Positions 1-37,963 of a stretch of DNA of 64,000 nucleotides are shown here, piece after piece. The DNA lies in NCBI GenBank assembly GCA_963805975.1, contig CAWDVR010000004.1:1-64000 (forward strand), read 5' to 3'. The stretch is from an uncultured Acidobacteriota bacterium. Its GTDB lineage: Bacteria; Acidobacteriota; Thermoanaerobaculia; Multivoradales; SZUA-115. Below the pieces are notes generated by a model. That model made no database searches, had not been told where the DNA came from, and worked only from the letters and a program-made list of their open reading frames with translations. The first letter of the stretch is position 1, and each line of letters starts with the position of its first letter. A program made the position numbers and the translations under genes.

Positions 1-692
1 GTTTCCGATGTCCTCGCTCTGCTCGACGCTGAACGCGACGAGCGGGGCATGAGCAACTGGGAGAAGCTGGGCTCGAGCACCGCGGGGATGAGGGACCCGG
101 AATACGGCTCACACGGCTGCGCAGGCTGGCGAAACGGATTGGGCGCAACCGGGGAGCTCGCGCACGCGCTCTGGAAGACCGACGTCTACGAAGCCAGAGT
201 GATCGCGCTTCTCGTCGACGACCCCGCGCGAATCACCCGTGACCAGGCCGAAAAACAGGTCGAGGAGTTGGCCGGCGGCATGCTGGCCCACGTGTTTTCT
301 TCCTGCGACGCGACGCTCGCGAAGACGTCATTCGTGGTCGAGCTTGCCGACCAGTGGGTCAGGAGCGACGATCCCGTACGCCGCGATTACCGGTACCGGG
401 CTGCTCTATGAGGCGTCGAAGTTCTCCGGTAAGAAGGCGCCGAGCGAGTCTCCTCGCCCATGTCGAGCGCATCGCGGACACAATCGGGACGGAGTCGGAG
501 AAGGTCCGGCCTGGCTATGGGTGCGGCGCTGATGGGGATCGGGAAGCGGAGCGCTGTGTTGAACGCGGCGGCCCTGAAGGTTGCGCGGGATGTGGGGCGA
601 TCGAGTTCACCTCCGCCAGCGGCGAGTGCGAGCCGTTCGACGTCGCAAAGCATCTGACCACCGACCGGTTGAAGGAGAAGTTGGGGGTGTAG
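1..692 (+). pseudogene. DNA alkylation repair (AlkD-like) protein, 5'-truncated by the window edge and frameshifted; probable integron cassette
   Basis: Consecutive fragments ELAHALWKTDVYEARVIA, GLLYEASK, LAHVERI, MGAALMGIGKRS and CEPFDVAKHL lie in different frames. R''-like GCCGAAC at 767-773. Confidence 0.6.
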
Positions 693-776
693 GTGTGCTT
701 GGCATGGCATCGCCGACGGCTTCGGTCTGAGCGAGAACAGTTGGTTGCTGCTGCTTGTGAATCGCCGCCGAACACG

Positions 777-939
777 TATGAGGCCCCCGGCTGTCAAGGG
801 CAAGACGCTCCAGCGGCGACCTCCGGATCGGTAGGTCGCTTGGGAGGCAGAAGTCGGTGAGAGGAGCAACCCTCCCCTGCTTGGTTTCGCATCGGCGCAG
901 CGGAGTGAAGCCGTCTGCACCAAACACGTATCGAAGCTC
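777..939 (-). mobile_element. Orphan IS110/IS1111-type non-coding right end, type A copy 1
   Basis: Homologous to 2339-2497 and 37464-37626. The minus strand ends CTTGAC..CCTCATA three bases from the attC R'' box. No transposase nearby. Confidence 0.65.
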
Positions 940-1129
940 AGCCGCCGCCGAGGCCACAGGTGCTCAAGTGGAACCTCTCCTTGGGGCGTGCGTTCTAGTA
1001 ACGAGGTGATGGCATGGTGCTCCGGTCGGCGGCCCGGGTTATTCCCTTCTTCGCCAGCGCGGTTCTTGTCGTCGGCTGTCTCGGCTCGTAGCGGCCAAGC
1101 GCAGGCGGGCGCTTTCGGACGTTGGAACC

Positions 1130-2170
1130 GTGTCGTTCGAGCTTGTCGACGCCAGTCGCAGCGACCCGCTTGAGAGCGGCCTCCCGAGACAATGGATGGT
1201 GCAGGTCTTTTATCCATCACGGCCATCCGTCGTCGTTTCTACGTACGTAGACGACCCCGCACTGCTGGAAGAGTTGATACGGGAGAACTACTACGACACA
1301 GGAGAAGCGGTCCTTCGATCGTGGGCCCGCTTGCCAGCCGTCACAGCCGAGAGAGCGATCCCAGCGAGCAGTACGCGGCTGCCGGTGGTGACTCTCTCCC
1401 CAGGTCTTGGCTTCGCGCGATTGAGCTATGCCCATATCGCGGCGGCGCTGACTCGTAGGGGCTACGCAGTGGTAGTCATCGACCATCCGTACATCGGCGT
1501 GAGCCGGCTTCCGGAGGGTCGTCTCCTCCGCGCGGCGGACGACCCAGCGACTTCGGGCCAGAACGTGGCCGCGGAATCCGAGCGCGTAGAGGAACGGGGA
1601 GAAGATATAGCAAGAGTTCTCGACCGTCTTCCCGCTGGGTCGGCGACGCCGATGATTGGGGGCCTAGCTCTCGACCTCGACCACGTGATCGCGACGGGGC
1701 ATTCGATCGGGGGCACCACCGTCCTGAAAGCCTGCGGCGAGGACCCGCATCGCCGCTTGCATCGACTTCGAGGGGAGCCTTCCTGCGGAGCCATGGGAAG
1801 GAGCGCGCAAGCCAACGCTCGTGGTTGTGAGCCGGTCTGGTGGTCGCCCACAGAGTTCGCCGATTGCTCCCGACCTCGCAGGCCAGATCGTGACTGCTCT
1901 CGACCGTGATGACGCTACCGCTTGGGTGGTAAAGGTCACCGGTGGAAGTCACACCAGCTACTCCGATGCGCCGCTCATGATGCCCGCGACGCTGTCGCGT
2001 TTCGGTGGGACCCTAATCAGTGCGGATCGATCTATTGCGCTGTACTCGGGTCTGGTAGACGCGTTCGCGCGGGCCTCGTCGCGGCGGCGACGAACTGCGA
2101 GTTGCGCAGCGTCCCTGGCCACCGCTCCCGAGGCCGACGGCCGCCATACTTACGAGCTGCGCGCTGAGAT
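1130..2170 (+). pseudogene. Alpha/beta hydrolase (PAF-acetylhydrolase-like), frameshifted; probable cassette
   Basis: Motifs VQVFYP, LPVVTLSPGLG, GYAVVVIDHP, GHSIGG, then GGSHTSYSD in a second frame (1821-2327). R'' GCCTAAC at 2329-2335. Confidence 0.7.
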
Positions 2171-2338
2171 TGTAGATGAACGACGACCTGCGGTCAGCAC
2201 GGCAGCGCCTCGATGTTTACCGCCGCTGAACTCAACGAGCTTGAAGCCATTGTCCGACCCGGACTGGACTCACGTCGACGGAAGCAACGCGTCATCGCGG
2301 TTGCCATCAGGAACACTAGCGGCGTGAGGCCTAACCCG

Positions 2339-2497
2339 TATGAGGCTCCCGACTGTCAAGGGCAAGACGCTCCCAGCGGCGACCTTCGGGTCGCGTAGGT
2401 GGCTTGGGAGGCGAATGAGGTGAGAGGATCGGGCTTCCCCTGTTTGACGCATCGGCGCAGCGTGGTGGATCGTCTGCACCAACGTGTATCGAAGCTC
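2339..2497 (-). mobile_element. Orphan IS110/IS1111-type right end, type A copy 2
   Basis: TATGAGGC..CTGTCAAGGGCAAGACGCTC...GTATCGAAGCTC shared with 777-939. Directly follows GCCTAAC. Confidence 0.65.
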
Positions 2498-2539
2498 AAG
2501 GGTCGCTGGCGGCGTTGATGATGCCGGCGTAACTGGCAG

Positions 2540-2612
2540 GAAGCGAAGGCGGGATCGGTCCAGATCCCGTCCGGCTCGAGTGGTTGAGCTTGACGGGAAC
2601 GGCCTACATCAA
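2540..2612 (+). mobile_element. Short remnant of the right end of the IS110 at 8296-9842 (type B)
   Basis: AGCTTGACGGGAACGGCCTACAT is identical to 9815-9837, preceded by a similar GATC hairpin. Confidence 0.7.
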
Positions 2613-2648
2613 GAGAGGGCGGAGAGCGACTACAACGGAGTTGCGCTC

Positions 2649-3065
2649 ATGTCAACAGAAAACCAAACCGTCATCCCGATGATCTCTTGCGAGACGAGTA
2701 TGCTTCCTCGAATAGCTAGCCAAGGCGTCGGCTTTGGGGAATAACATCCTGCGATCCCAACGGTCGGCTCATGCATGGCAAGCTAGCAGTTGGAATTTCC
2801 CGGCTTGGTTATGCTGGCCTCACCTACTCCGGACTATGAAGGTCCAAAACGGCATCGCGAAGGCTGCAACGCGCGAGGAGATGGTGATCTGTCCCGTGGA
2901 TTATCGATGGAGTTCTCGTCCAAGTGGACGACCTCGATGCACATCTTTGAGCGCGCGAAAACGTCGGGGGCAACAATACTTCTCAGAGAGGAGATTGAGA
3001 GACGGACCACCCAGGCAGAGGATACGGCAGGAAGATCCCGAAGGACACCGTTGGTTTTTTTCTAG
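2649..3065 (+). pseudogene. VOC/glyoxalase (PhnB-like) cassette gene, multiply frameshifted; paralogue of 9921-10331
   Basis: GLVMLASPTPDYEGPKRHR and EDPEGHRWFF match the intact copy. R'' GCCTAAC at 3083-3089. Confidence 0.75.
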
Positions 3066-3091
3066 AACGCGATCGTGGTATCGCCTAACAC

Positions 3092-3325
3092 AAACGTAGA
3101 TTCAGTAGCCCAGGGAGGGGTTAAGCCAGTTCACCGCCGAGGAGTCGAATGGGGTAGCTTGGTGCTCAGCCGAATCAGCCGACAGCGGATGAAGGTCCTC
3201 AGCGCAGTGCCGCATGACCCTCGGCGAAGCCCACAGCCCGGGCTCGGAGCAGGACGGAGAGGAGATCAGACCGGAGTCGGAGGCCATCGCTCAACGAAGG
3301 AGCTTGACAGCGGCCTACATAGAAG
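3092..3325 (+). mobile_element. Orphan non-coding right end of the type B IS110 family (partial bridge/seekRNA locus)
   Basis: Colinear homology to 9606-9842, e.g. GACCCTCGGCGA.GCCCACAGC and GCTTGAC..CGGCCTACATAGAAGGCGG. Confidence 0.8.
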
Positions 3326-3537
3326 GCGGGTTGCGCATACGAGAGACAAGGTACTCGCCCAGACCTGGACGAGGCCAACACTGAGCTTGGACGCGCGGCG
3401 CGCGTCACGAACCATTGGCGAGGATCGGAACCTTGCGTTATTCGGCCGCAGAGGGCTTAGAGGTAGGGACGAGGCTGTCCGCGCCTCTTGCCTGGCCTCG
3501 AGCGTGAACCCGTATGCGTGACCATGAGGAGACTGCA

Positions 3538-3940
3538 ATGAAACCCGAGCAGGTCGCGCCGAAGGACGTTTTTCTGAAGTTCAACTATCCAGAGCTGAAG
3601 GATCTAGGCAAGCACTTCCTAACGATCGCCTCCGCGACTGCGGTGTTCTTGGTTAGCTTTGTCGAGAAGATTGTCCGGTTGCCGGAGCCCGTGCCTGGGG
3701 ATAGTTCTCTGGGCCGACGGACTGTTCAAGACGACACTAGTCGCCTTGCTGGCGGCGATCGTCACCTCTGGCATCGGCCTCGTCACCAACTATATTGCCG
3801 GGGCGGGCGCGTCTGGCGCCATCATATGGGGTATTGGTAAGGACTTTCGGGCGCTTACCCGGCTCACCTATATAATGTATATTGTCGCCGGGTTCTGTCT
3901 GATTGCCGCCTACATCCTATTGGGCACATTGGCCTCGTAA
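3538..3940 (+). pseudogene. Small multi-TM membrane protein, frameshifted
   Basis: RBS GAGGAG and ATG. ELKDLGKHFLTIASATAVFLVSFVEKI continues as hydrophobic helices in the 3659-3940 frame. Confidence 0.5.
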
Positions 3941-4223
3941 GATAAATTTGTGCTAGCGACGGTCTTGGTTGAGACGGTGCACCTAGTGTGGGCTGTCTTG
4001 CGGTCCCTTGTGGTCTCGAGCTGGCCCGTGCCGCCTACCTCGGAGAACTGGCTACTACCTCGACTGTCGGTGGTGGGTAGGAGCTGCCTCCAGTGGACAA
4101 GTTCCGGCCTTAGGCCTTTTTGTTCGGGCACGCCGATCCTGGGTCGGACGAGGCGCGCCGTGACGCTCGTCGAATCGATGACCCTCCTATTGCCCCCTCC
4201 CGCCTCACGGGGGACCTGGACCA

Positions 4224-5211
4224 CTAAGTGCCGACCCCAGAAGAGGCAAAGACATCCTTTACAAAGGTCATGGGAAACCTGTAGCGGTCGTCTCGTGAGT
4301 CTTGAGGCTTTACGATCTCACGGTGACCAAACATTGGGTACTGGTCTGTCATTGCGCGAGAGAAAGTGCGCACTCTCAAGGGAAACTACGCCGTCATGAG
4401 GGCTGCCAATACCGTAGGTCTCTGGGGGTTTCTCTAGTCCGTTCCAGTAGACAGCAAGGGAAGCTAGAAACTCAGATCCGGGAGCAAGACTTCTCGCAAA
4501 GCCACGGCTAATACCTATCTCCTTTGCAAGCGTAGCTATTTTCGCGCCCTGATGGGGTGTGCCTATTGCGACAATTCCTCTAATCTTGGTAGTATTCTGG
4601 CCGAGCCGACTTTGAATAACCAATTCACGAGCTATTAGACCTCCCATACTATGCGCTACGATAGCTACGGCGTCGTACTTGTCAAGGACGCTATTCGCGT
4701 TCAGTTGCCGAAGAAGCCAGGAAACAAGCTGAGGAATATACAGGTTGCGACGCACCATAAAGGTTGGATAGGCTAGCGACAGCACATCACAGTTGTGGAA
4801 GATTGGATCCTCCAAAACTAGCTGCGGAAACCTATTCCACGTGGTAGCTCTATCTCCAGTCCATCCGTGGAGAAACACGATCAACTTTGTGTTGGCGTCT
4901 TCCTTGCGAGAAAACTCTGGAAGATGCAGCGCAACGGTCTTTGGGACCCGTGCAAAGATGCCGAACCATAGAATAGGAAAGATCAGTAGTAGAGGCGAGG
5001 AAACACTTAGGTAAGGTGTCCAGGAGTGAGAGGTGAGATCGAAGAAGTCGCTCGCTAGAGTAGCAACAAAATACAGACTCATAGCTGCTACCGCCAGGAA
5101 GAGAGGTCGCTGTACGCGAATCAGTAGATCGACCAAGCGAGAAGCAAGGGCGCCTAAGTCGGTGACCTGGGTGGTGCTATGCCTTCTGGATGGTGGTTCG
5201 AGGTCTACCAC
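4224..5211 (-). CDS. 2TM alpha/beta hydrolase (PGAP1/DUF676-like lipase), frameshift near 4345
   Basis: Two N-terminal hydrophobic helices, IVFLHGW, AHSMGG, GTPHQGA, DGVV. The catalytic-His motif GHREIVKP is in the shifted frame ending with TAG at 4224-4226. Confidence 0.75.
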
Positions 5212-5519
5212 GCCTGTGACCCTCGTGGAGATGACCAGAGAGCGTCGTCCCTGAGCAGGGCTCCGGCGGTTTCTGCGGCCTGGCCCAGGTGTAGAACCTG
5301 TGGGCCATTCTTCGGCAAGATCATCTCGATTCCGTGGCTAGCGGAACACAGGTTGAGGATGAAGGAAGCGAGATCATCGAGCCTGGCTACCTACCACTCC
5401 CGGTCTAGGAAGCGTGATTCTAGAGAGGGCAAGACAGGTAGCCGGCGGTTCGCGGCCTAAACTCGCGTGGGGCCTGACTTCGTCGTAGTCGTGTTTACAT
5501 GCCATCACGACACTCCTCG

Positions 5520-5680
5520 CCTTCTCCGGGTCGCGAAATCAGTGCTGTAAGAGGCACTCTCGGCGAACGATGCTGTTGAAGGCCTCGATATAGGCACTAT
5601 CGCTCGGTCGGCTAGGCCTGGAAGAGTCGAACTCGATTCCAGTACGCCCAGGCGTCCAGGGATCTCGATGTGAACTCGAG
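5520..5680 (-). mobile_element. IS3-family transposase integrase-core remnant
   Basis: Minus strand reads EFTSRSLDAWAYW...SRPSRPSDSAYIEAFNSIVRRECLLQH*F, a degenerate version of the IS3 PGKPTDNAYIESFN..RxECL motif. Confidence 0.7.
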
Positions 5681-5756
5681 GGGGCTGGAGCGAGGACGGC
5701 GATGAACGTCGACTGCTACTGCTAGAGAGTATTCCCGCGTTCAGTGCCCTAGAAGA

Positions 5757-6602
5757 TTAGTTGAGATCTAGTTCACAACTTCTCTTCCAGAGTGCTTCAA
5801 GGTAGTCGCGATAATAACAATAGGCGGCCTGATCGTGTCGCCATTCGATTCTGAAAACTGGTTTGTCAATCTCATCCTGCAAGCCGACCGGATGAAGGGC
5901 CAGAACGATCTCCCCGAGATGGCCGACCGAATCGCCGTAGCGAAGGATCGCTCCTACTGCCATCAGGAACGGTTAAAGTCGTACCTTAAGTCTCTCGGCC
6001 ATGCCTTCACGCTGGAGTTCTCTGGCAAGCTTTCTCACACCTTCAATCGCATGTTGTGCTTCAAGTGACTGGTCAGCCCACGTGTGCTGTGTACCCCACA
6101 TGTTTCTGAGTCTCTCTCGGCCTTCAGCATCTTGAATAGACTCCACGATGTGATAAAGTCCTGGGTCTGCAATGAGGATTCTTAACGTACAGGTCCGATT
6201 GGATCTTAGGACTTCCAAGAGCCTCTGCTGTCTACTGGAAAGAGCGAGTCGCCTGCTATGAGGTCCAACCATTAACAGGCCCGCTGCTCCAGCCCGGAAT
6301 TGGCTTTCCCAGACACCTTCTGACTGTTCAAATTCGCGATATCGGCAGTGTCTAAACTCATTCCTTGTTGCTACCGTCAAAGCGTCTCCGGTTCGCTCAT
6401 TCTCGAATACAAGATTCACCCTCTGCTGTTGCCACGTGGGATGCCCTAGTGGTTCGCTCTCTGGCCGAGCATTGATGCAAATCGCTGTACCGTTGTATCG
6501 ATCGGATATCTCTATTACGTTAAAGCCGGCGCCCTGATGGGAGGTGGCAGCGAGGGCGCCAAGGAGATGAAGATGTCCTGGCAACTCTGGGAGGAAGTCC
6601 AT
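5757..6602 (-). CDS. Hypothetical protein with DUF5919/PLD-like C-terminal domain, frameshifted near 5970
   Basis: ORFs 5973-6602 and 5757-5963 abut. LRILIADP, LKVRL and YxxYLEALWxRS pattern. Lower GC than flanks. Confidence 0.45.
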
Positions 6603-6665
6603 GGTGCTGGGGACTGACGATCAGTGACCTGGAGCTTCTCCGACGGACACCCGGCCAAGATCTGC

Positions 6666-6900
6666 TCAGATGGCCGGGAGGTTAAGCTTGGCGCTCGCGT
6701 GGCGCTGCACTGCTTCCCTTCGCCGGTCGTACCTCGCCGTCGTGACCGCGTCGGCGTGCCCTGCCAGCCGCTGGACGGTGAACACATCCACGCCGGCGTC
6801 GAGAAGGTCGGTGACGTAGGCCCTGCGGTACGAGTGCGGGGTGATTCCTTCAAGCCCCGCCGCGTGCGCTCCAAGGCCGATTTCAGGTACCACAGAAGGC
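6666..6900 (-). pseudogene. C-terminal remnant of an XerC/D-like tyrosine recombinase, same family as 41562-42495
   Basis: PHSYRRAYVTDLLDAGVDVFTVQRLAGHADAVTTARYDRR is identical to the 41.6-kb protein. Confidence 0.85.
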
Positions 6901-6940
6901 AGTTGGAGCGGGATTGACACTCATGCAACCCCACGGCTCC

Positions 6941-6993
6941 CTGTCGCAGAGCATCCCTGACACTCTGGGTCGAGCCACTGTCGCAGAGCATCC
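6941..6993. repeat. 16-bp direct repeat CTGTCGCAGAGCATCC x2
   Basis: Exact copies at 6941-6956 and 6978-6993. Confidence 0.85.
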
Positions 6994-7669
6994 AGGCGTC
7001 CCGTCACTCCGATCGGTAGCCAGGTGCTGAACCGTCGGACCTTTCGTCGTCCTGCGAACCAAGTAGGCAACGAAGCTCATCGGACGAAATCCTGTCCCAG
7101 AAGCTCCGAGTAACCCTCCGTACGGGGAGTTCACATCCTCGCCTGAACCGGGCCCACCTCGGGCTTCGCCCGTCGAAGGCCCACCGGTTCAACGAGTTCC
7201 GCAGGGCTTCGGATCGCCTCAGGCGCTGTCGTCTAATAGCTCGCTTCTCGAAGCTTCCGCCGAGCCCCGGCAAGGCTCTTCTGCGACACGCATTGTCGCG
7301 TTGCTTCCTATAGAGCGTGGTGTAGACTGCCACTAACTGCTGCCAAGCCAAGGAGTTGAACACGGCCCGATGCCGAGTCTTATCGCAGCCGACGCGACGT
7401 TGCTCGTCGGGTTAACACTGGGCAACTCAACGTCCCGCAAATAGAGAGGCGCAAGTTGGGCGGACGAGACACTGAGGAACGCATGCACCGATTCGTCACC
7501 TTCCTTGGGCGCGCCGCCGGCACCCCTGACGGTCCCCGACGCCACCCCGTCGGTGCCGAGAGACGATGAACGACCCGAACTGCCCATCGCTGCGTGTCGC
7601 TTCCCCAATGCTTCATGGCCGCCGCCGCAACTTCATTTTCGATAGTCCACGTCTCGTCAGGAGGTTCCC

Positions 7670-8119
7670 GTGAACTCAATCCCCCGCCCCGATCTTTCCG
7701 CCCGCCCGCTTCGAATGACCTGCGAATACACGGTCAACGCCAGGCCAGAAGAGGTCTACGCCGCCTGGACAAAGCGCTTCGACACCTGGTTCGCGCAGGC
7801 CGGAACGGTCGCCATGGTGCCAGAGTCAGGGCGGCCATACTTCTTCTACAACCGGGATGACTGGGGCAGACACCCTCACTACGGGCGATTCCTCGATGTG
7901 AAAGAAGGCCAACTCATCGAAATGACGTGGATGACGGGAAACGGAACCGCCGAGGGAACAGAAGGAGCCGAGACGGTTCTTCGGATTGAGCTTGTCCCCA
8001 AAGGCGGGGCTACGGAGATCCGCTTGACCCACTCCGGTTTCGTCTCCGAGAAGTCGCGCGACGGACACAAGGAGAACTGGCCACTGGCCCTCAAAATACT
8101 CAATGAAGCGGTGTCGTAA
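7670..8119 (+). CDS. SRPBCC/AHA1-like domain protein, integron cassette
   Basis: VNARPEEVYAAWT, IEMTW, TEIRLTHSGF and HKENW motifs. RBS AGGAGG. Followed by an attC. Confidence 0.85.
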   Translation: MNSIPRPDLSARPLRMTCEYTVNARPEEVYAAWTKRFDTWFAQAGTVAMVPESGRPYFFYNRDDWGRHPHYGRFLDVKEGQLIEMTWMTGNGTAEGTEGAETVLRIELVPKGGATEIRLTHSGFVSEKSRDGHKENWPLALKILNEAVS

Positions 8120-8235
8120 TCAACCTCTTGACAACCCTGGCGCCGCTCCATCGACGAGGTCGACTCCGAGCCCATGAATCGTCAGGAGGCCAGCCTCTTC
8201 TTCCGACTAGGAGTGGTTCCATGTTGGCCGGTGCC

Positions 8236-8295
8236 GCCCAACAGTCCGATGCAGCGGACCGGCCTCTGGCCGGCCGCTGATCGGCGGAGCGTTAG
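8236..8295 (+). other. attC site, interrupted in R' by IS110
   Basis: R'' GCCCAAC, L boxes CAGCGGAC/CCGCTGA around a hairpin, R' GTTAG followed by the IS. Confidence 0.85.
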
Positions 8296-8387
8296 ATCCT
8301 ATGCGTGGTCCGGGCGGTAGGTGGATCGGAAAGGAGCACGGGTCGTCCCGAGTAAGCTTCCTTTGAGACCAAGCAAAGGAGGAGCTT

Positions 8388-9530
8388 ATGAGCTCTCAGA
8401 CGACCCGTGGTAAGGAGTATAGCCAGAGGGCTGGGACGGTGTATCTGGCTTTCGAGCTGGGCAACACGGAGTGGAAGCTGGCGTTCACGGTGGGGCTGGG
8501 GCAGAAGCCTCGAGAGCGGACGATTCCGGCTGGTGAGGTTGGACGGCTGGCGGAGGAGATCGAGCGGGCGAAGCAGCGGTTTGGCCTGGCCAGTTCGGCC
8601 CGAGTGGTGAGCTGTTACGAGGCGGGGCGAGACGGGTTCTGGTTGCATCGGTTCCTGGGCGAGGTGGGGGTGGAGAGCCTGATCGTGGATTCCTCGAGCA
8701 TCGAAGTGCAGCGTCGAGGTCGGCGAGTGAAGACCGACCGACTCGATGCACGCAAGCTGGTGACGATGCTGATCCGCTACGACGGGGGTGAGCGCAAGGT
8801 GTGGAGCGTAGTGCGGGTGCCGGCATTGGAGGAAGAAGAGAATCGGCAGCTTCACAGGGAGCTGGGAGAGCTGAAACGCGAGCGGACGCGCCTGACGAAC
8901 CGGATCAAGGGCTTACTCGTGGGCCAGGGGATACGGATCGAGCTGAAGAGGGACTTCGTCGAGCGTCTTGGAGCGGCGCAGATGTGGGATAGCAGCCCTG
9001 TGCCGGCGGCGCTGCGCTGCCGGCTACTGCGGGAGTGGGAGCGCGTGGAGCTGATCAACCGACAGATTCGGGAGCTGGAAGACGATCGCGAGGAGCTGGT
9101 GCGGGAGTGGGACAGCCCGGAGGTCGAGAAGGTGCGCAGGCTGATGCAGCTACGCGGGATCGGGATCAACTTCTCCTGGCTTCTGGTCATGGAGTTCTTC
9201 GGGTGGCGACGGTTCCGCAACCGGCGTCAGGTGGGGTCTCTCGCGGGCCTGGTGCCGACGCCGTACCAGAGCGGCGCCAGCAGCAGGGAGGCAGGCATCA
9301 GCAAGGCAGGCAACGTGTGGGTGCGAGCGGTGGCCATTGAGATGGCCTGGGCCTGGTTGCGATTCCAGCCCCGCAGTGAGCTGGCAAGGTGGTACCGAGA
9401 GCGCTACGCTCAGGGCGGCAGTCGGATGCGACGGATCGGGATCGTCGCAGTGGCTCGCAAACTCTTGGTGGACCTCTGGCGGTACCTGGACTGGGGCGTG
9501 ATCCCAGCCGGCGCTGCCCTGAAGGCGTAG
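8388..9530 (+). CDS. IS110-family transposase/recombinase
   Basis: RuvC-like motifs LAFELG, CYEAG, KTDRLDA. C-terminal GIG, GLVPTPYQSG, ISKAGN, VAVARKL. Confidence 0.95.
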   Translation: MSSQTTRGKEYSQRAGTVYLAFELGNTEWKLAFTVGLGQKPRERTIPAGEVGRLAEEIERAKQRFGLASSARVVSCYEAGRDGFWLHRFLGEVGVESLIVDSSSIEVQRRGRRVKTDRLDARKLVTMLIRYDGGERKVWSVVRVPALEEEENRQLHRELGELKRERTRLTNRIKGLLVGQGIRIELKRDFVERLGAAQMWDSSPVPAALRCRLLREWERVELINRQIRELEDDREELVREWDSPEVEKVRRLMQLRGIGINFSWLLVMEFFGWRRFRNRRQVGSLAGLVPTPYQSGASSREAGISKAGNVWVRAVAIEMAWAWLRFQPRSELARWYRERYAQGGSRMRRIGIVAVARKLLVDLWRYLDWGVIPAGAALKA

Positions 9531-9539
9531 CAGAGTCGG

Positions 9540-9790
9540 AGTATTGATGAGAGCTGACGCTGGTGGAGGTGCCCGTTGTGCCGCCGGGTCTTCGAGTGAG
9601 GACCGAACGTTAGATGGGGCCACCCCGAGAGGGCTTCACCAGTTCGCCGAAGTCGAATGCAGGATTAGGTGCTCGGCCGAAATGAGCCGACACGGATAGA
9701 AGGTTGCTCAGGCGCAGTGACGCCTGACCCTCGGCGAGGCCCACAGCGACGGCTTGGAGTTGAAAACGAAAGCGGGGATCAGTCCGGATC
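9540..9790 (+). ncRNA. Putative bridge/seekRNA (boundaries approximate)
   Basis: Contains GTGCCGCC (9578), CGTTAG (9608), AGGAT (9661) and ATAGAAG (9696), which match the target flanks and element ends. Confidence 0.7.
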
Positions 9791-9920
9791 CGGAGATCCC
9801 CGCTCGAACCGAGAAGCTTGACGGGAACGGCCTACATAGAAGGCGGCGCGGCCGGCGCGGCAGTGCCATCGTGCGTGTTTGGTGTTCGAAACCTTCGTGG
9901 CATGGCGAAAGGAGAACAAG

Positions 9921-10331
9921 ATGCCAGACGTCGTTCCGTTTTTGACCTATGAGGATGGCATTGCCGCCCTAGAATGGCTGGCCGAAGTGTTTGGATTCAC
10001 GGAGACAGCTCGCTTCACGTCTACCGATGGGAGGCTTTCTCACGGAGAAATGTCGATTGGGGATGGACTAATCATGTTGGCCAGTCCGTCGCCGGACTAT
10101 GAAGGCCCCAAGCGACATCGCGGCAACTGCGAGATTGCCGCCTCATGGTCCGCTCTGCCATGGATCATTGATGGTGTTCTCGTCTATGTTGAGGACGTCG
10201 ATGAGCACTATGCTCAGGCGAAGGCTGCAGGAGCCGTTATCTTGTCTGAACCGGAAGATGGGCCGCCAGCGCGACGATATCGAGTTGAGGATCTGGAAGG
10301 ACATCGATGGATGTTCATGGCACGAGACTAG
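9921..10331 (+). CDS. VOC/glyoxalase (PhnB-like) protein, cassette
   Basis: VVPFLTYED, WLAEVFGF, HGEM, YRVEDLEGHRWMF. RBS AAGGAG. Confidence 0.9.
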   Translation: MPDVVPFLTYEDGIAALEWLAEVFGFTETARFTSTDGRLSHGEMSIGDGLIMLASPSPDYEGPKRHRGNCEIAASWSALPWIIDGVLVYVEDVDEHYAQAKAAGAVILSEPEDGPPARRYRVEDLEGHRWMFMARD

Positions 10332-10378
10332 TCCGCACGCTATTCACAATCGCAACGGGAGTGGAACGGGGTGCCGCC

Positions 10379-10439
10379 TTCTAACGTTTGAACTCAGCCG
10401 CGCCCGCTTGCAGGCGTCGGCTGGAGTGAATTCTTAGGT
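10379..10439 (-). other. attC site of the DHFR-like cassette (R'' degenerate)
   Basis: Minus strand ACCTAAG-aattcactc-CAGCCGAC...CGGCTGA-gttcaaac-GTTAGAA, the classical short attC pattern. Confidence 0.8.
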
Positions 10440-11032
10440 GGTAGCGTTCCGTGGCTCGCCACGAGTCCTCGCACCTCGTAACAAAGCTCCACCATGCCGC
10501 TCTTATAGGCTTTGACCTCCGCCAGATGGAGGGCGATGTCTCTGTCGAGTTTCTCGAAGAACGGCATCCCATCGCCAATCAAGATCGGCAGGATCGAATA
10601 GCGAACTTCGTCGGCTAGCCCGAGACGAAGGCATTCGCCGGAAACTACACCGCCTCCGACAAACCAGATGCTACGGAACGAGAGCCGCAGGCGCCCATTC
10701 ACGAACTGCGCAAGATCGCCAGAGTAGAACTCGACTGTATCCCGGCTTCGCGGCAGATCGCGACTGGTGAGGACGAAGGTGGGTTTGTCGCCGTACGACC
10801 AGCCCAATCCTCTGGCTTCAAAACGAAGCGCGGTCTCATAGGTTCGCGATCCCATGACGTAGCAGTCGATCGTCTTGAGGAACGCCTCGACGAATCCTGG
10901 GTCCAGGGTGTCGCCGCCTGCGAATTCGTCTGAGGTTTCGAGCCAGTCGACGCGCCCGTCCTTTCGAGCGATGAAGCCGTCGAGACTGGCGGCCATGTGA
11001 ATCGTTACGCGAGAACAAATGGTTGCCATCAT
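10394..11032 (-). CDS. Dihydrofolate reductase/RibD C-terminal family protein, cassette
   Basis: MAASLDGFIA, VMGSRTYE, IWFVGGG, LADE..PILIGDG. Confidence 0.9.
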   Translation of the reverse strand: MMATICSRVTIHMAASLDGFIARKDGRVDWLETSDEFAGGDTLDPGFVEAFLKTIDCYVMGSRTYETALRFEARGLGWSYGDKPTFVLTSRDLPRSRDTVEFYSGDLAQFVNGRLRLSFRSIWFVGGGVVSGECLRLGLADEVRYSILPILIGDGMPFFEKLDRDIALHLAEVKAYKSGMVELCYEVRGLVASHGTLPPKNSLQPTPASGRG

Positions 11033-11094
11033 GTCGCTCTGTCGTCGAGTGCCGTGGTTCGCAGCAGTGCTCGGAGCCGCCGCCGCTTGAGTCC

Positions 11095-11177
11095 ACCTAA
11101 CGATACTGCCGTTCAGCGACGAATGGGAGAGGGAGCGAAGCGACCGACCCGTTCGTCCGCTGCAATGATGGTTAGCC
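11095..11177 (-). other. attC site
   Basis: Minus strand GGCTAAC..CAGCGGAC...CGCTGA..GTTAGGT. The R'' is complementary to the attI core GTTAGCC. Confidence 0.9.
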
Positions 11178-11205
11178 AGCACAAGCGCCCGGGTCGGTGA
11201 GGCCA

Positions 11206-11598
11206 CTACTCATTGCGAGTCACCCGCCCCGCGCCGACGTAGGTAGCACCGTCCTTCGCCGGAACCTCGTCGGGCCAACCTAATGTGGCACGGACAGCGC
11301 GGGCTAGAACCCTGACGCGCTCCCATCGAACGTCCGACTCAAGCAGACTGATGTCGGTCCAAAACTCCTCGTTCTGGGGACCTGAGAGTTCGTTAAGGTA
11401 GGTATCGAGTGCCGACAGTGACGCGGCCTCCGATGGCGAGAGCGTCGCCTGGGTCTCCCGAAACGTTCGCATGGCATCCTCGAACTCCAACGCGAGTTCA
11501 TCGCCGACACAGGCAACGTCTGGGAACAAGGACACCTGTATCGCCCCAGGTTGAGCGAGGGCCTGTACGCACCGACGAAGCTCGATCAAAGCGTCCAT
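11206..11598 (-). CDS. Hypothetical 130-aa helical protein, first cassette after attI
   Basis: ATG lies 7 nt after the GTTAGCC core; bounded by an attC. Confidence 0.7.
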   Translation of the reverse strand: MDALIELRRCVQALAQPGAIQVSLFPDVACVGDELALEFEDAMRTFRETQATLSPSEAASLSALDTYLNELSGPQNEEFWTDISLLESDVRWERVRVLARAVRATLGWPDEVPAKDGATYVGAGRVTRNE

Positions 11599-11605
11599 GG
11601 TGTCT

Positions 11606-11680
11606 GGCTAACTGGTGCATCTACATTCGACGGGTCCAGTTATCCAGAATCCTTGAGACCCTCACTCGTCGCTGAAGTTC
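11606..11680 (-). other. Putative attI site, copy 1
   Basis: GTTAGCC core with no attC hairpin upstream. The upstream sequence is conserved with 41113-41190 and homology breaks down at the core. Confidence 0.75.
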
Positions 11681-11738
11681 CGAGAGGTCGAGGGGCGCCG
11701 CCCACTCGAAGTGCTTTCGGATGCCAGTAGTTAGGAGC

Positions 11739-11766
11739 ATTTTACGTCTACTTCAATAGGAGTCAA
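11739..11766 (-). promoter_or_regulatory. Sigma70-type cassette promoter (Pc-like)
   Basis: TTGACT-N16-TAAAAT facing attI, conserved at 41246-41273. Confidence 0.8.
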
Positions 11767-12204
11767 CCCGGCCCGAGAGTCCAGTTAGCGGAGCATCTTG
11801 ACCACCGGAAGGCTGGTCAAGTCGAAGTCGTTACACGGCGGTAAGGCTGCTTCGCGGAGGCGCCTGTAAGCCTCGCTGACAGAGGGGGATATGGCTGGCC
11901 TGGGCGATCCCGGACGGCTTGAGACTCGCCGGCCTGTGCTCTCGGAGAGGGGAGGGCGCGTTCTCCGCCTGCTGTCGTTCGCTGAACCTCCAGGGGCTCG
12001 CGGCGCTCGGACCCGGCGACTCAACTGAGCTGAGAGGACTTGCGGGCCACGAGGACCCGAAGGGCCTCGGCGCTTCACCGAAAAGGCGCCGGCCGTTCAG
12101 TGACTCAGAGCTTAGGCGGCCGGGTCTCAAGGCTCGACCTGGCAGCGTCGAGTTCAAAGACCTACTACTCGACATGTCCTGCGAGGCTCGACTGCACGGC
12201 GCTC

Positions 12205-12368
12205 TCGAGTGAAGGTCGGCCGGGCTCTTCACTCCTCGGCCGCCACGGTTGAGCACATGGGTGTAGATCATGATCGTTTTCAGGTGGTAGTGTCCCAGGA
12301 TTTCCGGCACGGTTCGAATGTCGTAGCCGTTCATCAGCAGGTGAGTGGCAAAGCTGCAGCGAGAACGT
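12205..12368 (-). pseudogene. intI: Integron integrase C-terminal remnant
   Basis: [44 protein letters not shown] matches the typical IntI C-terminus. Confidence 0.85.
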
Positions 12369-13911
12369 GGGCGAGAAGTACGGCTACTGGCTACGGGCCG
12401 CCGTCGAGCGCTGGAAAGAGCATAGGAAGGTCTTCAAGGAGCTCGGCATCCGGCCGGTGCTTTTCATCATGGCCGAGAAGAACGTGCTCGCCGACGCTAT
12501 CGGTGCCTATCTCTGGAAGACGCCGGAATTCGGCTTCAAGGAGTCCGAGGTCTTGGTCATCCACACCGACTCGTCCGGCGAGATGACGAAGAAGGACCTC
12601 GATCGCGCCCGCGAGGCGGCGCGCGATATCGACGGGCCGGCGAGTAAGACGAAGGCGATCGTCAGCGTGATGATGCTGCGCGAGGGGTGGGACGTGCGCA
12701 ATGTCTCCGTGGTCCTGGGTCTCCGGCCGTTCACAGCCAGGGCCGAGATTCTTCCCGAGCAGGTCATCGGCCGAGGGCTGCGCCTGATGAACCAGGTCGG
12801 GCCGGATCGCACCCAGACGTTGGAGGTGCTCGGCACCCGCAACCTGCTCAACGTGCTCCGCGATCAGCTCGAAGCCGAGGGCGTGGGGGTCAAGAGCACC
12901 AGGAGCGACCCACCCGTGGCTTTCATCATCTACCCGGTGAAAGAGCGGCTGGACTACGACATCGCCATCCCCATCACCAAGCCCCGCCTGGAGCACGACA
13001 TCCGCAAGCTCTCCGAACTCAAGGTCGAGGCACTCGGGCCGATCTACGAACAGGAGGAGGTGGACGAGCGCTTCCGCATCAGCCTGAAGCTCGAGTTTGC
13101 CACCACCGAGACGGAGATTCATCAGGCAGACATAGGGGCTGGTGAGTTGCCCACCGCGCAAGCACTGCTCGGCAGCATCACCAGCAAGGTCATGGAACGG
13201 GCCAAGCTCACCGCCTGCTTCGCCGAGCTCTATCCCCTGGTTCGGGCCTATGTGACGCAGCGCTGCTTCGGCCGCATTGTCGATCTGGAGCAAGAGACCT
13301 TGCGTTCCCACCTCGCCCGTCTGGAGCTCAAGGAGGGCATCGCCCAGTATCTGGCTCGGAGGATCGCCGCGCTGACGGTGGAAAGGAAGAAGATCGAGTT
13401 CGAGCGTGCGGACAACCGTCTGTCGGACACCAAGCCCTTCAGTTGGCGCCGCAACCTCCCGCCCCTGACGGTGACCAAGACCATCTTCAACTATGTGGCC
13501 ACCTACAACGACTTCGAGCGCCGCTTTGCCCACTTCCTCGACGCGGCGGACGACGTACTGCGCTTCGCCTCCCTGGGCACCACCGAGCAGGGCGACTCCG
13601 CCACGCAGTTCCGCGTCGACTACCTCAAGCCTAGCGGCGCCATCGGCTTCTACCACCCGGACTGGGTAGTGGTGCAGCGCCAAGGGACCGGCGAGGTGCA
13701 CTGGATCATCGAAACCAAAGGCCGCGTCTGGGAGGGCACCGAGGCCAAGGACCAGGCGATCGAAGACTGGTGCCAGCGTGTGACGGAAGCTACTGGCAAG
13801 GAGTGGCGCTACCGGCGTGTGAACCAGGTGGCCTTCGAGAAGCGGAAGCCAAGGAGGCTGGAGGAGGTCGTCACTTCCGAGGACGGCTCTTCGGGAGGTC
13901 TCGCCCTCTGA
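12367..13911 (+). pseudogene. Type III restriction enzyme Res subunit, N-terminally truncated
   Basis: MLREGWDV, EQVIGRGLR and YHPDW..IIETKG nuclease motifs. Walker A and DEAH motifs are absent. Confidence 0.85.
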
Positions 13912-13972
13912 AGGTCACCTAGGACGGAGATCACGTTGGGTTAGAAGTTCCGCAGGCCAAGCGAGATGCGAG

Positions 13973-15394
13973 ATGCACACAGCGATGGACGCCTTCCGCT
14001 TTGACTTCGACGACAGCCCGGCGACCCAGGACTGCCTGGGTTTCCAGGAGCCCGCGGAGAATCTCGCGCGGCAGCTGGCGAGCTCACGGCTGCCCTTGGT
14101 GCTGGGCCTTTTCGGTCGATGGGGCTGCGGGAAGAGTAGCTTCCTGGAGATGCTTGTGCGCGCCCTCGAAGCTGTGCCTGCCAACTTGCGTAGGATGAGT
14201 CCCGTCGCCTTCGAGCCCTGGAAGCTTCAGGACTCCTCGACCATCCTCCATGATCTCGTCAGCGCCATTCACCTGACTGTCACGAAGGACACCAAGCTTT
14301 CTTCGCAGTCCGACGACTGTGCAAGGCAGCTCTTTTCCCACCTCGGAGGCCTTACAGCGAGCTCGCTTCGAGAAATGTTACTTTCCGGTGCCGGTCATCT
14401 CGCAGAGTCGCGGTTGGCCCTCGGTAAGGAAGTGCGGACAGCCATTCACAAGATGCTGCGAACCCCTCCGGAGCGGATAGCGCAAAGTAGGGTCCAAGCT
14501 TCGCGAGCGTTGTCAGGGGCGTACGCTGCCTATCTTCGATCTCTACCCACCGTACCCGTTGTCGTAATCGACGACCTGGATCGATGCTCTCCGGCAGTGG
14601 TAGGACGGGTGCTGGAGGCGCTGAAGCTCTATTTGAGCGACCAGGATGCTCCTGCTCTTTACATTCTAGCGATGGACCATCAAATGGTTGTCAGTGCCGT
14701 ATGCGCGCACTGCGGCTTTGAGGACTGGAAAGATGGCTGGCAGTATCTGAGCAAGATATGCTCGGTCAACTACTTTGTTCCTCGCCCGCACCTCTCCGCG
14801 CTGACGGCCCACCTTACCGCCGAGATGCGCAAGGACCACGACGGTCTAAATGGGTTTTGGAAGTTCCTCTCAGAGGAGGAGACAGAGCGCCTCCTCTATC
14901 GTTCCGACTTGTACCTGCCCCGTCGCGTCAAGCGCGTGGTTCGCGAGCTCCACATGGCCTTGTCTCTTGGCGCTCATGGGCTCGTCAGGATTGTCCGTGA
15001 ACTCGCGGATCGCTATGCCGAGGAGGACAGGATTGAGCGACTCTGCTACCGCCTGCTACTCGGCGTTTTTCTCCTTCGAGAGGCATATCCGGAGGTTTAC
15101 TCGCAGATCGTGTACAGAACCCACACTCGAAGAGTCGACCTTCTCTTCGCGTTGGCTGAGGCAGCCGTCATAGCAGGAGCAGAATCTCGCACAGGCGCCA
15201 CAGCGGCGGTTCTCCAGAGCTGGTGCTTGTCTGGCCTGGCCCCTTACTTCTCCGAAACGGCGCTCCTCGATCTGGTAGTGGTGTTCTTTTCTCAGGAGGA
15301 CTATGGAACGCCAGCCGGAGCCCGTGATGGCAGCGACGCCACCGTGCCGCTTCATCCTCTAAACGCGCTCTTGGATCAGCTCATGGAGAGCTAG
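13973..15394 (+). CDS. KAP-family P-loop NTPase
   Basis: GLFGRWGCGKSS, FEPW, VVIDDLDRC, YLSKI, PRRVKR. Confidence 0.9.
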   Translation: MHTAMDAFRFDFDDSPATQDCLGFQEPAENLARQLASSRLPLVLGLFGRWGCGKSSFLEMLVRALEAVPANLRRMSPVAFEPWKLQDSSTILHDLVSAIHLTVTKDTKLSSQSDDCARQLFSHLGGLTASSLREMLLSGAGHLAESRLALGKEVRTAIHKMLRTPPERIAQSRVQASRALSGAYAAYLRSLPTVPVVVIDDLDRCSPAVVGRVLEALKLYLSDQDAPALYILAMDHQMVVSAVCAHCGFEDWKDGWQYLSKICSVNYFVPRPHLSALTAHLTAEMRKDHDGLNGFWKFLSEEETERLLYRSDLYLPRRVKRVVRELHMALSLGAHGLVRIVRELADRYAEEDRIERLCYRLLLGVFLLREAYPEVYSQIVYRTHTRRVDLLFALAEAAVIAGAESRTGATAAVLQSWCLSGLAPYFSETALLDLVVVFFSQEDYGTPAGARDGSDATVPLHPLNALLDQLMES

Positions 15395-37425: not shown

Positions 37426-37463
37426 GCCTCGGTGAGGGATCCGCAGTCCGTTGGGCTAACATG

Positions 37464-37626
37464 TATGAGGCCCCCGCCTGTCAAGGGCAAGCTGCTCCGC
37501 AGGCGATCTCTGGGACGGTAGGTCGCCAGGGAAGCAGAAGCCAGTGAGAGGATCGCTACTGCTCCACTTGGTTTCGCCTCGGCGCAGCGTGATGGAATCG
37601 TCTGCGCCAAACACGTATCGAAGCTC
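37464..37626 (-). mobile_element. Orphan IS110/IS1111-type right end, type A copy 3 (may extend to about 37790)
   Basis: Homologous to 777-939 and at the same 3-nt offset from R''. Confidence 0.65.
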
Positions 37627-37963
37627 TGACGCCGGCCAAGCGGCGTCGCCGAAACCCTCTGGACTCTGGTGGCTTAGAAACGATTCGGTGGCCTCGGGCT
37701 AGCCCCCTATCACGCGGACCTCTTTGGAGCGGGCAACGCCAGTTACTGTGTCGGGAGCACGCCGTCCGAAGAACTTGTGCCTACGCCCTAGAACCCACAG
37801 TCGAGGTAGGTCGCTTCCGGTGCTTCGATTGGGATGCGAATAAGACTGATCAGCTCGACGCTGGCAATGCAAGGACAGCGATAGGCACCCACATGGGTAC
37901 TTGCATTCTGCTTTGTTGATCTCGCTTGTCGTTAGTCATGTGCCTCAACCGTCCTTTCCTGAC

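Follow-up and report, generated by a model that had tools for sequence, protein, structure and literature searches.

The stretch analysed here (the window) comprises 64,000 nucleotides from an uncultured Acidobacteriota bacterium (GTDB lineage Bacteria; Acidobacteriota; Thermoanaerobaculia; Multivoradales; SZUA-115; GenBank assembly GCA_963805975.1, contig CAWDVR010000004.1, positions 1 to 64,000 of the forward strand). At 8296-9842 it carries an insertion sequence of the IS110 family, 1,547 nt long with one copy of its 2-nt core, which splits an attC-like site and is flanked by an SRPBCC/AHSA1 gene and a glyoxalase-like gene. A recombinase gene is followed by a non-coding end that appears to encode a guide RNA resembling the bridge RNA of IS621 (Table 1). 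A previous examination of the bare DNA, the sequence-only reading, had proposed such an RNA, and its claims are taken up where our results bear on them. Statements drawn from the cited papers refer to the portions of those papers that were consulted.

Table 1. Coordinates of the element, its predicted RNA and the surrounding features in the window
Feature	Position	Strand	Details and basis
attC-like site, 5' part	8236..8295	+	R'' 8236-8242, 5-nt spacer, L'' 8248-8255, stem-loop, L' 8276-8282, 8-nt spacer, GTTAG 8291-8295
Left copy of 2-nt core	8294..8295	+	AG on gene strand, CT on the other; junction common to both full copies in the genome
Left end, 92 nt, begins ATCCTATG	8296..8387	+	CTATG (half of 5-bp subterminal repeat); most of predicted junction -10 box
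IS110-family recombinase, 380 aa	8388..9530	+	E23, E78, D117, D120, S295; Pfam, NCBIfam, fold match, residue survey
Predicted target-binding module of bridge RNA	9559..9643	+	Constrained fold; compensatory pairs in closing stem
Putative target guide, segment A, complementary to right flank	9578..9585	+	0.62 matched vs 0.30 shuffled, 28 clusters, p 0.001
Putative target guide, segment B (RTG), equal to left flank plus core, then handshake AT 9614-9615	9608..9615	+	0.82 vs 0.37, p 0.001
Predicted donor-binding module of bridge RNA	9644..9737	+
Putative donor guide, segment C (LDG), complementary to left end	9661..9665	+	Left end +3, 0.81 vs 0.33
Putative donor guide, segment D (RDG), equal to right end plus core, then handshake GT 9703-9704	9696..9704	+	Right end -1, 0.96 vs 0.67
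Predicted -35 box TTGACG of circle-junction promoter	9818..9823	+	18 nt before -10 box starting at core G
Right end terminus and right core copy	9836..9842	+
Right flank: last two bases of R' and bases extending the attC stem	9843..9849	+	Reconstructed empty site folds to full hairpin
Shorter right-end remnant	2541..2614	+	76% identical; before frameshifted glyoxalase-like gene
Sibling-element remnant: decayed donor module and right end	3109..3325	+	76% identical; right flank begins GCGG
Integron integrase C-terminal fragment	12215..12361	-	TIGR02249 positions 275-313 of 315, E 7e-14, far below cut-off

The element and its recombinase

The left flank closes with CGTTAG (8290-8295) and the left end opens with ATCCT at 8296, while the right end closes with ATAGA-AG (9836-9842) and the right flank GCGGCGC begins at 9843. 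A second full copy, 99% identical, lies in the same genome (G000) at G000:C2:1595-3141. Its flanks differ from those of the window copy and part from them exactly at AG on each side, which fixes the ends at 8296 and 9842. The two copies differ only in the first 260 nt, where the C2 copy has frameshifts that may be assembly errors; over 8558-9842 they are identical, which points to recent movement. In keeping with the IS110 family, there is a 2-nt core at both ends and no long terminal repeat, the longest subterminal repeat being 5 bp (6 of 13 positions matching). A supposed third insertion at C6:1-2015 was rejected, as it is 94.7% identical to C2:1-2027 including the flank. The range given in the sequence-only reading, 8236..9850, does hold the element, but its outer parts are the attC arm and the right flank.

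The recombinase is encoded by one long intact reading frame in which all five catalytic positions are present. It matches PF02371 above the cut-off (E 1.4e-17), PF01548 below it (E 3.4e-6, 27.4 bits against a cut-off of 29) and NCBIfam NF033542 well above it (192.7 bits against 140). The first catalytic position is a glutamate, E23, in LAFELG, and the protein therefore departs from the D-E-D-D motif in its first residue, the other three being conserved. Among 156 full-length relatives this position is Glu in 143 and Asp in 7, and E78 is conserved in 154, D117 in 155, D120 in 153 and S295, which aligns to the SG motif of IS621, in 155. On this alignment Glu-for-Asp is a trait of the whole clade (EEDD) and not peculiar to the window copy. 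A structure model built from a 50-row alignment (pLDDT 85, pTM 0.75) places E23 and E78 at strand ends; the position of E23, at the end of strand 1 of the predicted structure, agrees with that of the first residue of the D-E-D-D motif. D117 and S295 fall in low-confidence loops of the model, resembling the D102 and S241 loops of IS621, which are mobile in a protein where D11 is a Mg2+ ligand (PMC11208158). The best fold matches of the model are IS621 (E 6e-13, matching over the whole length) and ISCro4 (E 1e-12), at 21-22% identity, and the nearest named relative is an ISMno20-family copy with 48% identity over 313 aa.

Putative guides in the non-coding end

Four segments of the non-coding end correspond to the flanks and the ends of the element. 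In gene-strand order, GTGCCGCC at 9578 is the complement of the right flank, CGTTAG at 9608 matches the left flank, AGGAT at 9661 is the complement of the left end and ATAGAAG at 9696 matches the right end; the single mismatch of the first segment, which pairs at 7 of 8 positions, is a U:G wobble. In 20,000 dinucleotide shuffles of the non-coding end the four never occurred in this order, and singly they were common (27%, 4%, 34% and 1%, respectively). Because the segments had been chosen after seeing the targets, covariation in homologues constitutes the real test.

The loci collected comprised 80 on genome contigs, 80 in metagenomes and 30 from relatives. At 43% identity or more there were 167 loci, 155 of which had the donor-loop anchor and 99 both ends and flanks; L047 and L049 were dropped from the covariation count as misaligned, leaving 97 elements in 28 clusters at 70% protein identity, scored against 1,000 shuffles across clusters (L069, L177, L179 and L166, which are fragments or long branches, were excluded from the trees). 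Both target segments followed their own flanks (Table 1), segment A beyond a null maximum of 0.43 and segment B over the last four left-flank bases. The donor segments face ends that vary little: segment C matched the left end at 0.69 (null 0.56), driven by position +3, and segment D the right end at 0.98 (null 0.92), with position -1 again well above its null. The first handshake base of the donor loop followed right-flank position +1 (0.83 vs 0.48; 14 of 17 in further loci). In 33 disjoint within-cluster pairs with differing guides, meant to limit kinship even if pairs from one subgroup are not fully independent, cognate pairing beat swapped pairing in 32 and lost in 1. Loci added later behaved likewise, guide B matching the left flank at 0.87 vs 0.33 (15 loci) and guide A reaching at least 6 of 7 matches to the right flank in 65% vs 8% (17 loci); among them L198 repeats L040, and a misparsed left end in L206 lowers the score. 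A consensus fold of 36 rows (row L046 cut short) contains 11 pairs, 9 with compensatory changes, located in the closing stem of the target loop and in a hairpin inside the donor loop. Separately, L009-L013 carry a palindrome-rich insert of ~240 nt between the stop codon and the predicted bridge RNA.

Taken together, the comparison across homologues strongly supports the interpretation of the non-coding end as a bridge RNA, and the guides have, on these alignments, been naturally reprogrammed. The sequence-only reading had called for just this comparison of guides with flanks, and its four segments were all found where it placed them and its reconstructed target and circle junction are supported, the ends being confirmed by the C2 copy and the guide assignments, for target and donor alike, by the covariation.

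Several observations count against this interpretation. No RNA, circle, empty allele or activity has been observed, and a search of sequencing runs gave no RNA holder (best share 0.13). The left-donor guide matches only 5 positions, left-end +6 and +7 being unmatched, and the handshake of the target-binding loop, which is nearly invariant, covaries without significance (0.83 vs 0.79, p 0.053; 12 of 16 in further loci). Folded alone and unconstrained, the non-coding end is no more stable than its shuffles (z -1.44), and opening the guides in the constrained fold costs 5.4 kcal/mol. The end patterns required AG, so elements with another core went uncounted. Three properties of the insertion sites and their genome, given below, belong on the same side of the balance: a departure from the textbook attC, a missing full-length integrase and a mismatched second target. 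A search of window 1-14000 against Rfam (E up to 0.1) returned no match.

The downstream non-coding region and the order of the target matches are as in IS1111, and the left-donor pairing is short, which would suit a short seekRNA over the target loop only, of the kind reported for IS1111 elements, with a protein that mainly reads the ends and donor matches that are secondary. We regard this as unlikely. At the two variable positions of the ends the donor segments change along with them, the handshake base of the donor loop tracks the target, and the ISMno20-family copy has changed its donor guide and its right end together. Siddiquee 2024 gives IS1111 elements subterminal inverted repeats that measure 11-13 bp and lie 7 and 3 bp inside the ends; the window element lacks these and has only the 5-bp repeat.

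The relationship to IS621 becomes apparent on the strand opposite the gene. Here the segments run left target guide (LTG), right target guide (RTG), left donor guide (LDG) and right donor guide (RDG) around a CT core, the order and core defined for IS621 (PMC11208160). The RNA bases following the core copies are AT and GT, and at positions 6-7 the target carries GC and the donor AT; an AU/GU handshake with GC/AT partners is the wild-type arrangement of IS621 (PMC11208158, PMC13626964). The commonest donor of the clade, read on the CT strand (46 of 99), differs at 2 of 14 positions from that of IS621, for which the right half was taken from the element start and the left half from a segment in Supplementary Table 1, read here as the left donor guide. 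Across the clade the right end has a median length of 437 nt (range 287-1,054 nt) and the left end 93 nt, with the RNA downstream of the gene. Compared in this way, the AG core is the CT core of IS621 read on the other strand, and gene and RNA are inverted relative to the ends; this inversion accounts for both the apparent AG core and the IS1111-like order of the target matches. Of the intact AG-core recombinase in the sequence-only reading, the intact frame and its glutamate are retained, but the core is CT. Where a strict IS621-type element carries its bridge RNA at the left and reads CT along the gene strand, this element has its RNA in the right end and CT on the strand opposite the gene. 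Layout, catalytic residue and target position make it a variant rather than a system of a new kind.

The same correspondence bears on whether the element is a chemically distinct AG-core recombinase, in which Glu-for-Asp alters metal binding or the strand cut first. E23 is nearly fixed in the clade, the protein is only ~21% identical to IS621 and the equivalent residue there binds metal, all of which would favor such a change; the opposite-strand core, loop order, handshake and most donor bases nevertheless correspond to IS621, and the 7 clade members with Asp, found in three branches, have the same ends. We therefore consider a distinct chemistry improbable.

Joining the ends in a circle would also create a promoter. 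In 85 of 99 elements the core G is preceded, at a distance of 17-18 nt, by a TTGACA-like hexamer; a -10-like hexamer, most often GATACT or GATAAT, begins at this G, and the pair predicts a junction promoter facing the gene. A promoter scan of the linear element (8100-10500) found none. The element very probably works like IS621, as an IS110-family insertion in the R' box of an attC-like site whose downstream end likely encodes a two-loop bridge RNA of the IS621 type. By pairing with both the target and the joined ends, the bridge RNA would guide recombination to the CT core opposite the gene strand. By analogy with IS621, rare excision would yield a circle, whose junction would create a sigma-70-like promoter that drives the recombinase and, through read-through transcription, the bridge RNA as well. 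A tetramer with a composite RuvC-Ser site would then cut beside the core, and strand exchange, aided by handshake bases (one pair before and three after), would insert the circle. What the target guides spell is the best-conserved part of attC, a 9-mer of rare occurrence in the genome, and this would explain a preference for attC.

The attC-like site and the choice of target

The first five bases of the split R' box are the GTTAG at 8291-8295, and the C2 copy occupies the same position of another attC-like site in the genome. Once the flanks are rejoined, the R box is whole again and the stem longer (-29.8 kcal/mol, against -22.9 after insertion; for the C2 site -24.7 against -18.5), which provides an independent check of the reconstructed site. 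In this reconstruction the complementary boxes R'' (RYYYAAC) and R' (GTTRRRY) both fit. The bottom strand of the site folds as a hairpin (z -4.1, 0 of 200 shuffles), and the site has the best score of our home-made attC detector. Two bulged bases, 6 bp apart on the R''/L'' arm, give the site a plus orientation, the same as that of the transposase and the flanking genes.

In the usual attC two extrahelical bases, usually G and T, lie on the L'' arm and the spacers measure 5-6 nt (PMC5027507). The arm and the 6-bp spacing fit here; the bases are C and T, the first bulge being C rather than G, and the spacers are 5 and 8 nt. In addition, the upstream gene stops 116 nt before R'', and a whole-genome search of the 96% complete assembly found no full-length integron integrase over the cut-off. 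A decayed site, or a non-integron palindrome that merely resembles attC and makes the integron link incidental, would be in line with these departures, and the detector is our own. We give this possibility little weight, as both R boxes fit the consensus, the two bulges lie 6 bp apart on the expected arm, and the second copy and 7 homologues lie in similar sites against 5 of 960 control points. Moreover, within 4 kb there are further attC-like sites (10380-10440 and 11095-11177, minus strand) and the integrase fragment of Table 1. The detector, which needs G at the first bulge in one version and G or C in a later one, misses real-looking sites, the one at 10380-10440 among them; after the downstream gene none was found on the plus strand.

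The integrase IntI crosses over between G and TT of R' (PMC5027507), here between 8291 and 8292, and the element is inserted two bases beyond this point. Its left junction continues to match GTTRRRY and retains the L boxes and bulges; the R-box helix is absent from the predicted fold of the junction. The idea of a harmless insertion into attC is thus supported only in part.

To what extent the clade as a whole addresses attC was assessed from the reconstructed sites. The detector called 8 of 102 and, among later ones, 3 of 15, against 5 of 960 random flank points in its stricter version; we discounted L007 and L216, judging them to be palindromes that lack an R-box junction. Of the 117 clade elements with both of their ends available, this leaves 9 that sit in attC, and 4 of the 9 are antisense. 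The insertion is in R' and sense in both G000 copies, L023, L061 and L206 (the two orientations of L206 score closely, 17 sense vs 16 antisense), in R'' and antisense in L077 and L207, and in L'' and antisense in L053 and L057, which are from one genome. The nine fall on four branches of a 64-row tree, and in three of these branches the guides of relatives also spell GTT-AG. For six rows, a tree uniting the attC-inserted elements in one clade was rejected (p-AU 2e-61). On these trees repeated gain of attC targeting is the simpler reading, one early gain followed by many losses being less simple. The sequence-only reading had the recombinase hit the R' box in the orientation of the cassettes; this is so for both G000 copies, but attC targeting and co-orientation are not rules of the clade, most of which, judged from its flanks, targets other sequences.

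Three loci of the clade call for separate description. L053 and L057 are inserted antisense at the end of L'', close to the IS1111-attC position; their donor loop is a variant form, and their non-coding end contains a second motif resembling a right end. L196, from Cupriavidus necator (NC_015724.1, locus 1-2650), is found immediately past an annotated group II intron reverse transcriptase gene that runs on the opposite strand, and its guides match the flanks at 7/7 and 4/4; it probably sits within the 5' region of the group II intron.

Within G000 the core-proximal 9-mer of the target occurs empty twice in 5.36 Mb, where Markov models expect 6-12 occurrences, and one empty occurrence lies in an attC-like 3' half. 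This rarity makes sequence alone a usable address. Over the 13-nt guide target, however, the C2 site is mismatched at 3 positions and 57 empty sites at only 1-2, so pairing count alone is insufficient and either a seed rule or help from the hairpin is needed. In the second case the guide pairing would be real and the attC hairpin, as a cruciform or single strand, would assist site selection, structure being read as well as sequence. Both G000 insertions are indeed in hairpin-forming sites, and many clade targets look palindromic by eye. Both used sites nonetheless match the core-proximal 9-mer perfectly, as do only two others in the genome, and a seed rule suffices; two insertions are too few to tell the models apart. 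We view a contribution of the hairpin as possible but doubtful. The best match in the genome to the guides of the element is itself an empty attC-like 3' half, at G000:C6:73200-73290, a candidate for an unused target.

The surroundings hold further traces of mobile DNA. The two decayed right ends of the same clade at 2541-3325 flank a frameshifted glyoxalase-like gene, and 2541-3070 parallels 9764-10331; an R''-like sequence at 3082 continues directly into decayed RNA, which would fit a deletion of attC, left end and gene. The integrase fragment is followed, 3' and on its own strand (minus), by cassettes with a RibD-like gene and an unknown gene (10394-12361), and it abuts a plus-strand restriction-type gene fragment (12367-13911), which suggests a rearrangement or an assembly join. 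A different repeat of ~190 nt recurs in cassette-like regions, at 767-954, 2329-2498 and 37458-37634 of the window and at G000:C4:74634-74725 and 75932-76015. Read on the minus strand, it finishes with a TTGACA box and a conserved terminus beside an R''-like sequence, and it holds an internal segment resembling its own terminus/R'' junction. A copy in another genome (G059:C100) follows a DEDD-type IS110 gene of the same strand at a distance of ~480 nt. These repeats probably represent right ends or mini-elements belonging to a second IS110 lineage that has a guide of its own.

Relation to known elements and meaning

IS621 and ISCro4 are bridge recombinases (Durrant 2024, PMC11208160; Hiraizumi 2024, PMC11208158; PMC13626964; PDB 8wt6-8wt9, 9t56). 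With them the window element shares the fold, the Ser loop, a short subterminal repeat, a predicted junction promoter and, in its predicted RNA, the two-loop order, the opposite-strand CT core and the handshake bases. It differs in its low protein identity (~21%), its first catalytic residue, the downstream position of the RNA, the antisense relation of gene and RNA to the CT strand and its target, which is attC where that of IS621 is a repetitive extragenic palindromic (REP) sequence.

Elements of the IS110 type with a downstream non-coding region exist, and the order of target matches is reversed between IS1111 and IS110, for which differing mechanics were suggested (Siddiquee 2024). With IS1111 the window element shares the downstream region and a top-strand match before the bottom-strand match; its identity to IS1111 transposases is 27% to IS5708 and 23% to part of IS4321, short of full-length relatedness. 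The clade stands apart from 11 outgroup rows at 100/100, only one of those rows being a named IS1111 member. The IS1111-attC group (ISKpn4, ISPst6, ISPa21, ISPa25) has in common with it the attC targets, a downstream non-coding RNA and the match order. Those elements enter attC in antisense close to its 5' end, where the spacer meets L'' (PMC3001079; review PMC13604230), whereas both copies here insert in R', sense, which sets them apart from that group. ISKpn4, ISPst6 and ISPa21 are 20-22% identical to ISMno20, and the catalytic domain of ISKpn4 starts with Asp (Siddiquee 2024); the placement relative to ISKpn4 and ISPst6 rests on these published identities, ISKpn4 being outside the tree. Group IIC-attC introns likewise use attC as an address, but are retroelements that enter the bottom strand, opposite to cassette transcription (PMC3001079).

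Nearest to the window element among named relatives stands the ISMno20-family copy, on NC_011892, which falls inside the clade and shares the downstream layout and the AG core. Its guides match the right end and right flank of that copy itself; it lacks its own 5' part and is not in attC. ISMno20, ISAzs35 and ISRel9 share a row in the tree table of Durrant 2024 (PMC11208160), and among the six worked examples in the consulted portions of that paper none bears an ISfinder name tied to the clade. The group is thus catalogued; in a literature search that left most subscription journals outside, we found no published description of its RNA, core or catalytic change, and no account of the RNA of the clade, its Glu or attC targeting outside IS1111.

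The mechanism itself is already known. What the clade would add is a widespread natural branch of the bridge recombinases, sharing ~21% identity with the two of solved structure, in which predicted RNA, ends, core, handshake bases and promoter can be read directly from the sequence. In it an element on the IS621 scaffold shows the IS1111 match order simply through inversion, which bears on the suggestion, in the consulted part of Siddiquee 2024, that the mechanics may differ. It also indicates that attC is addressed by putative RNA-guided elements outside the IS1111-attC group, at three different positions. We tentatively suggest, as a possibility, that the EEDD clade is an IS621-type system flipped relative to its ends, that the reversed guide order of IS1111 is a matter of layout and not of mechanism, and that the system was reprogrammed onto attC several times independently. 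The R' branch would insert two bases past the integrase crossover and leave a junction that is still R'-like, so that integron integrases could go on using the site and carry the element along with the next cassette.

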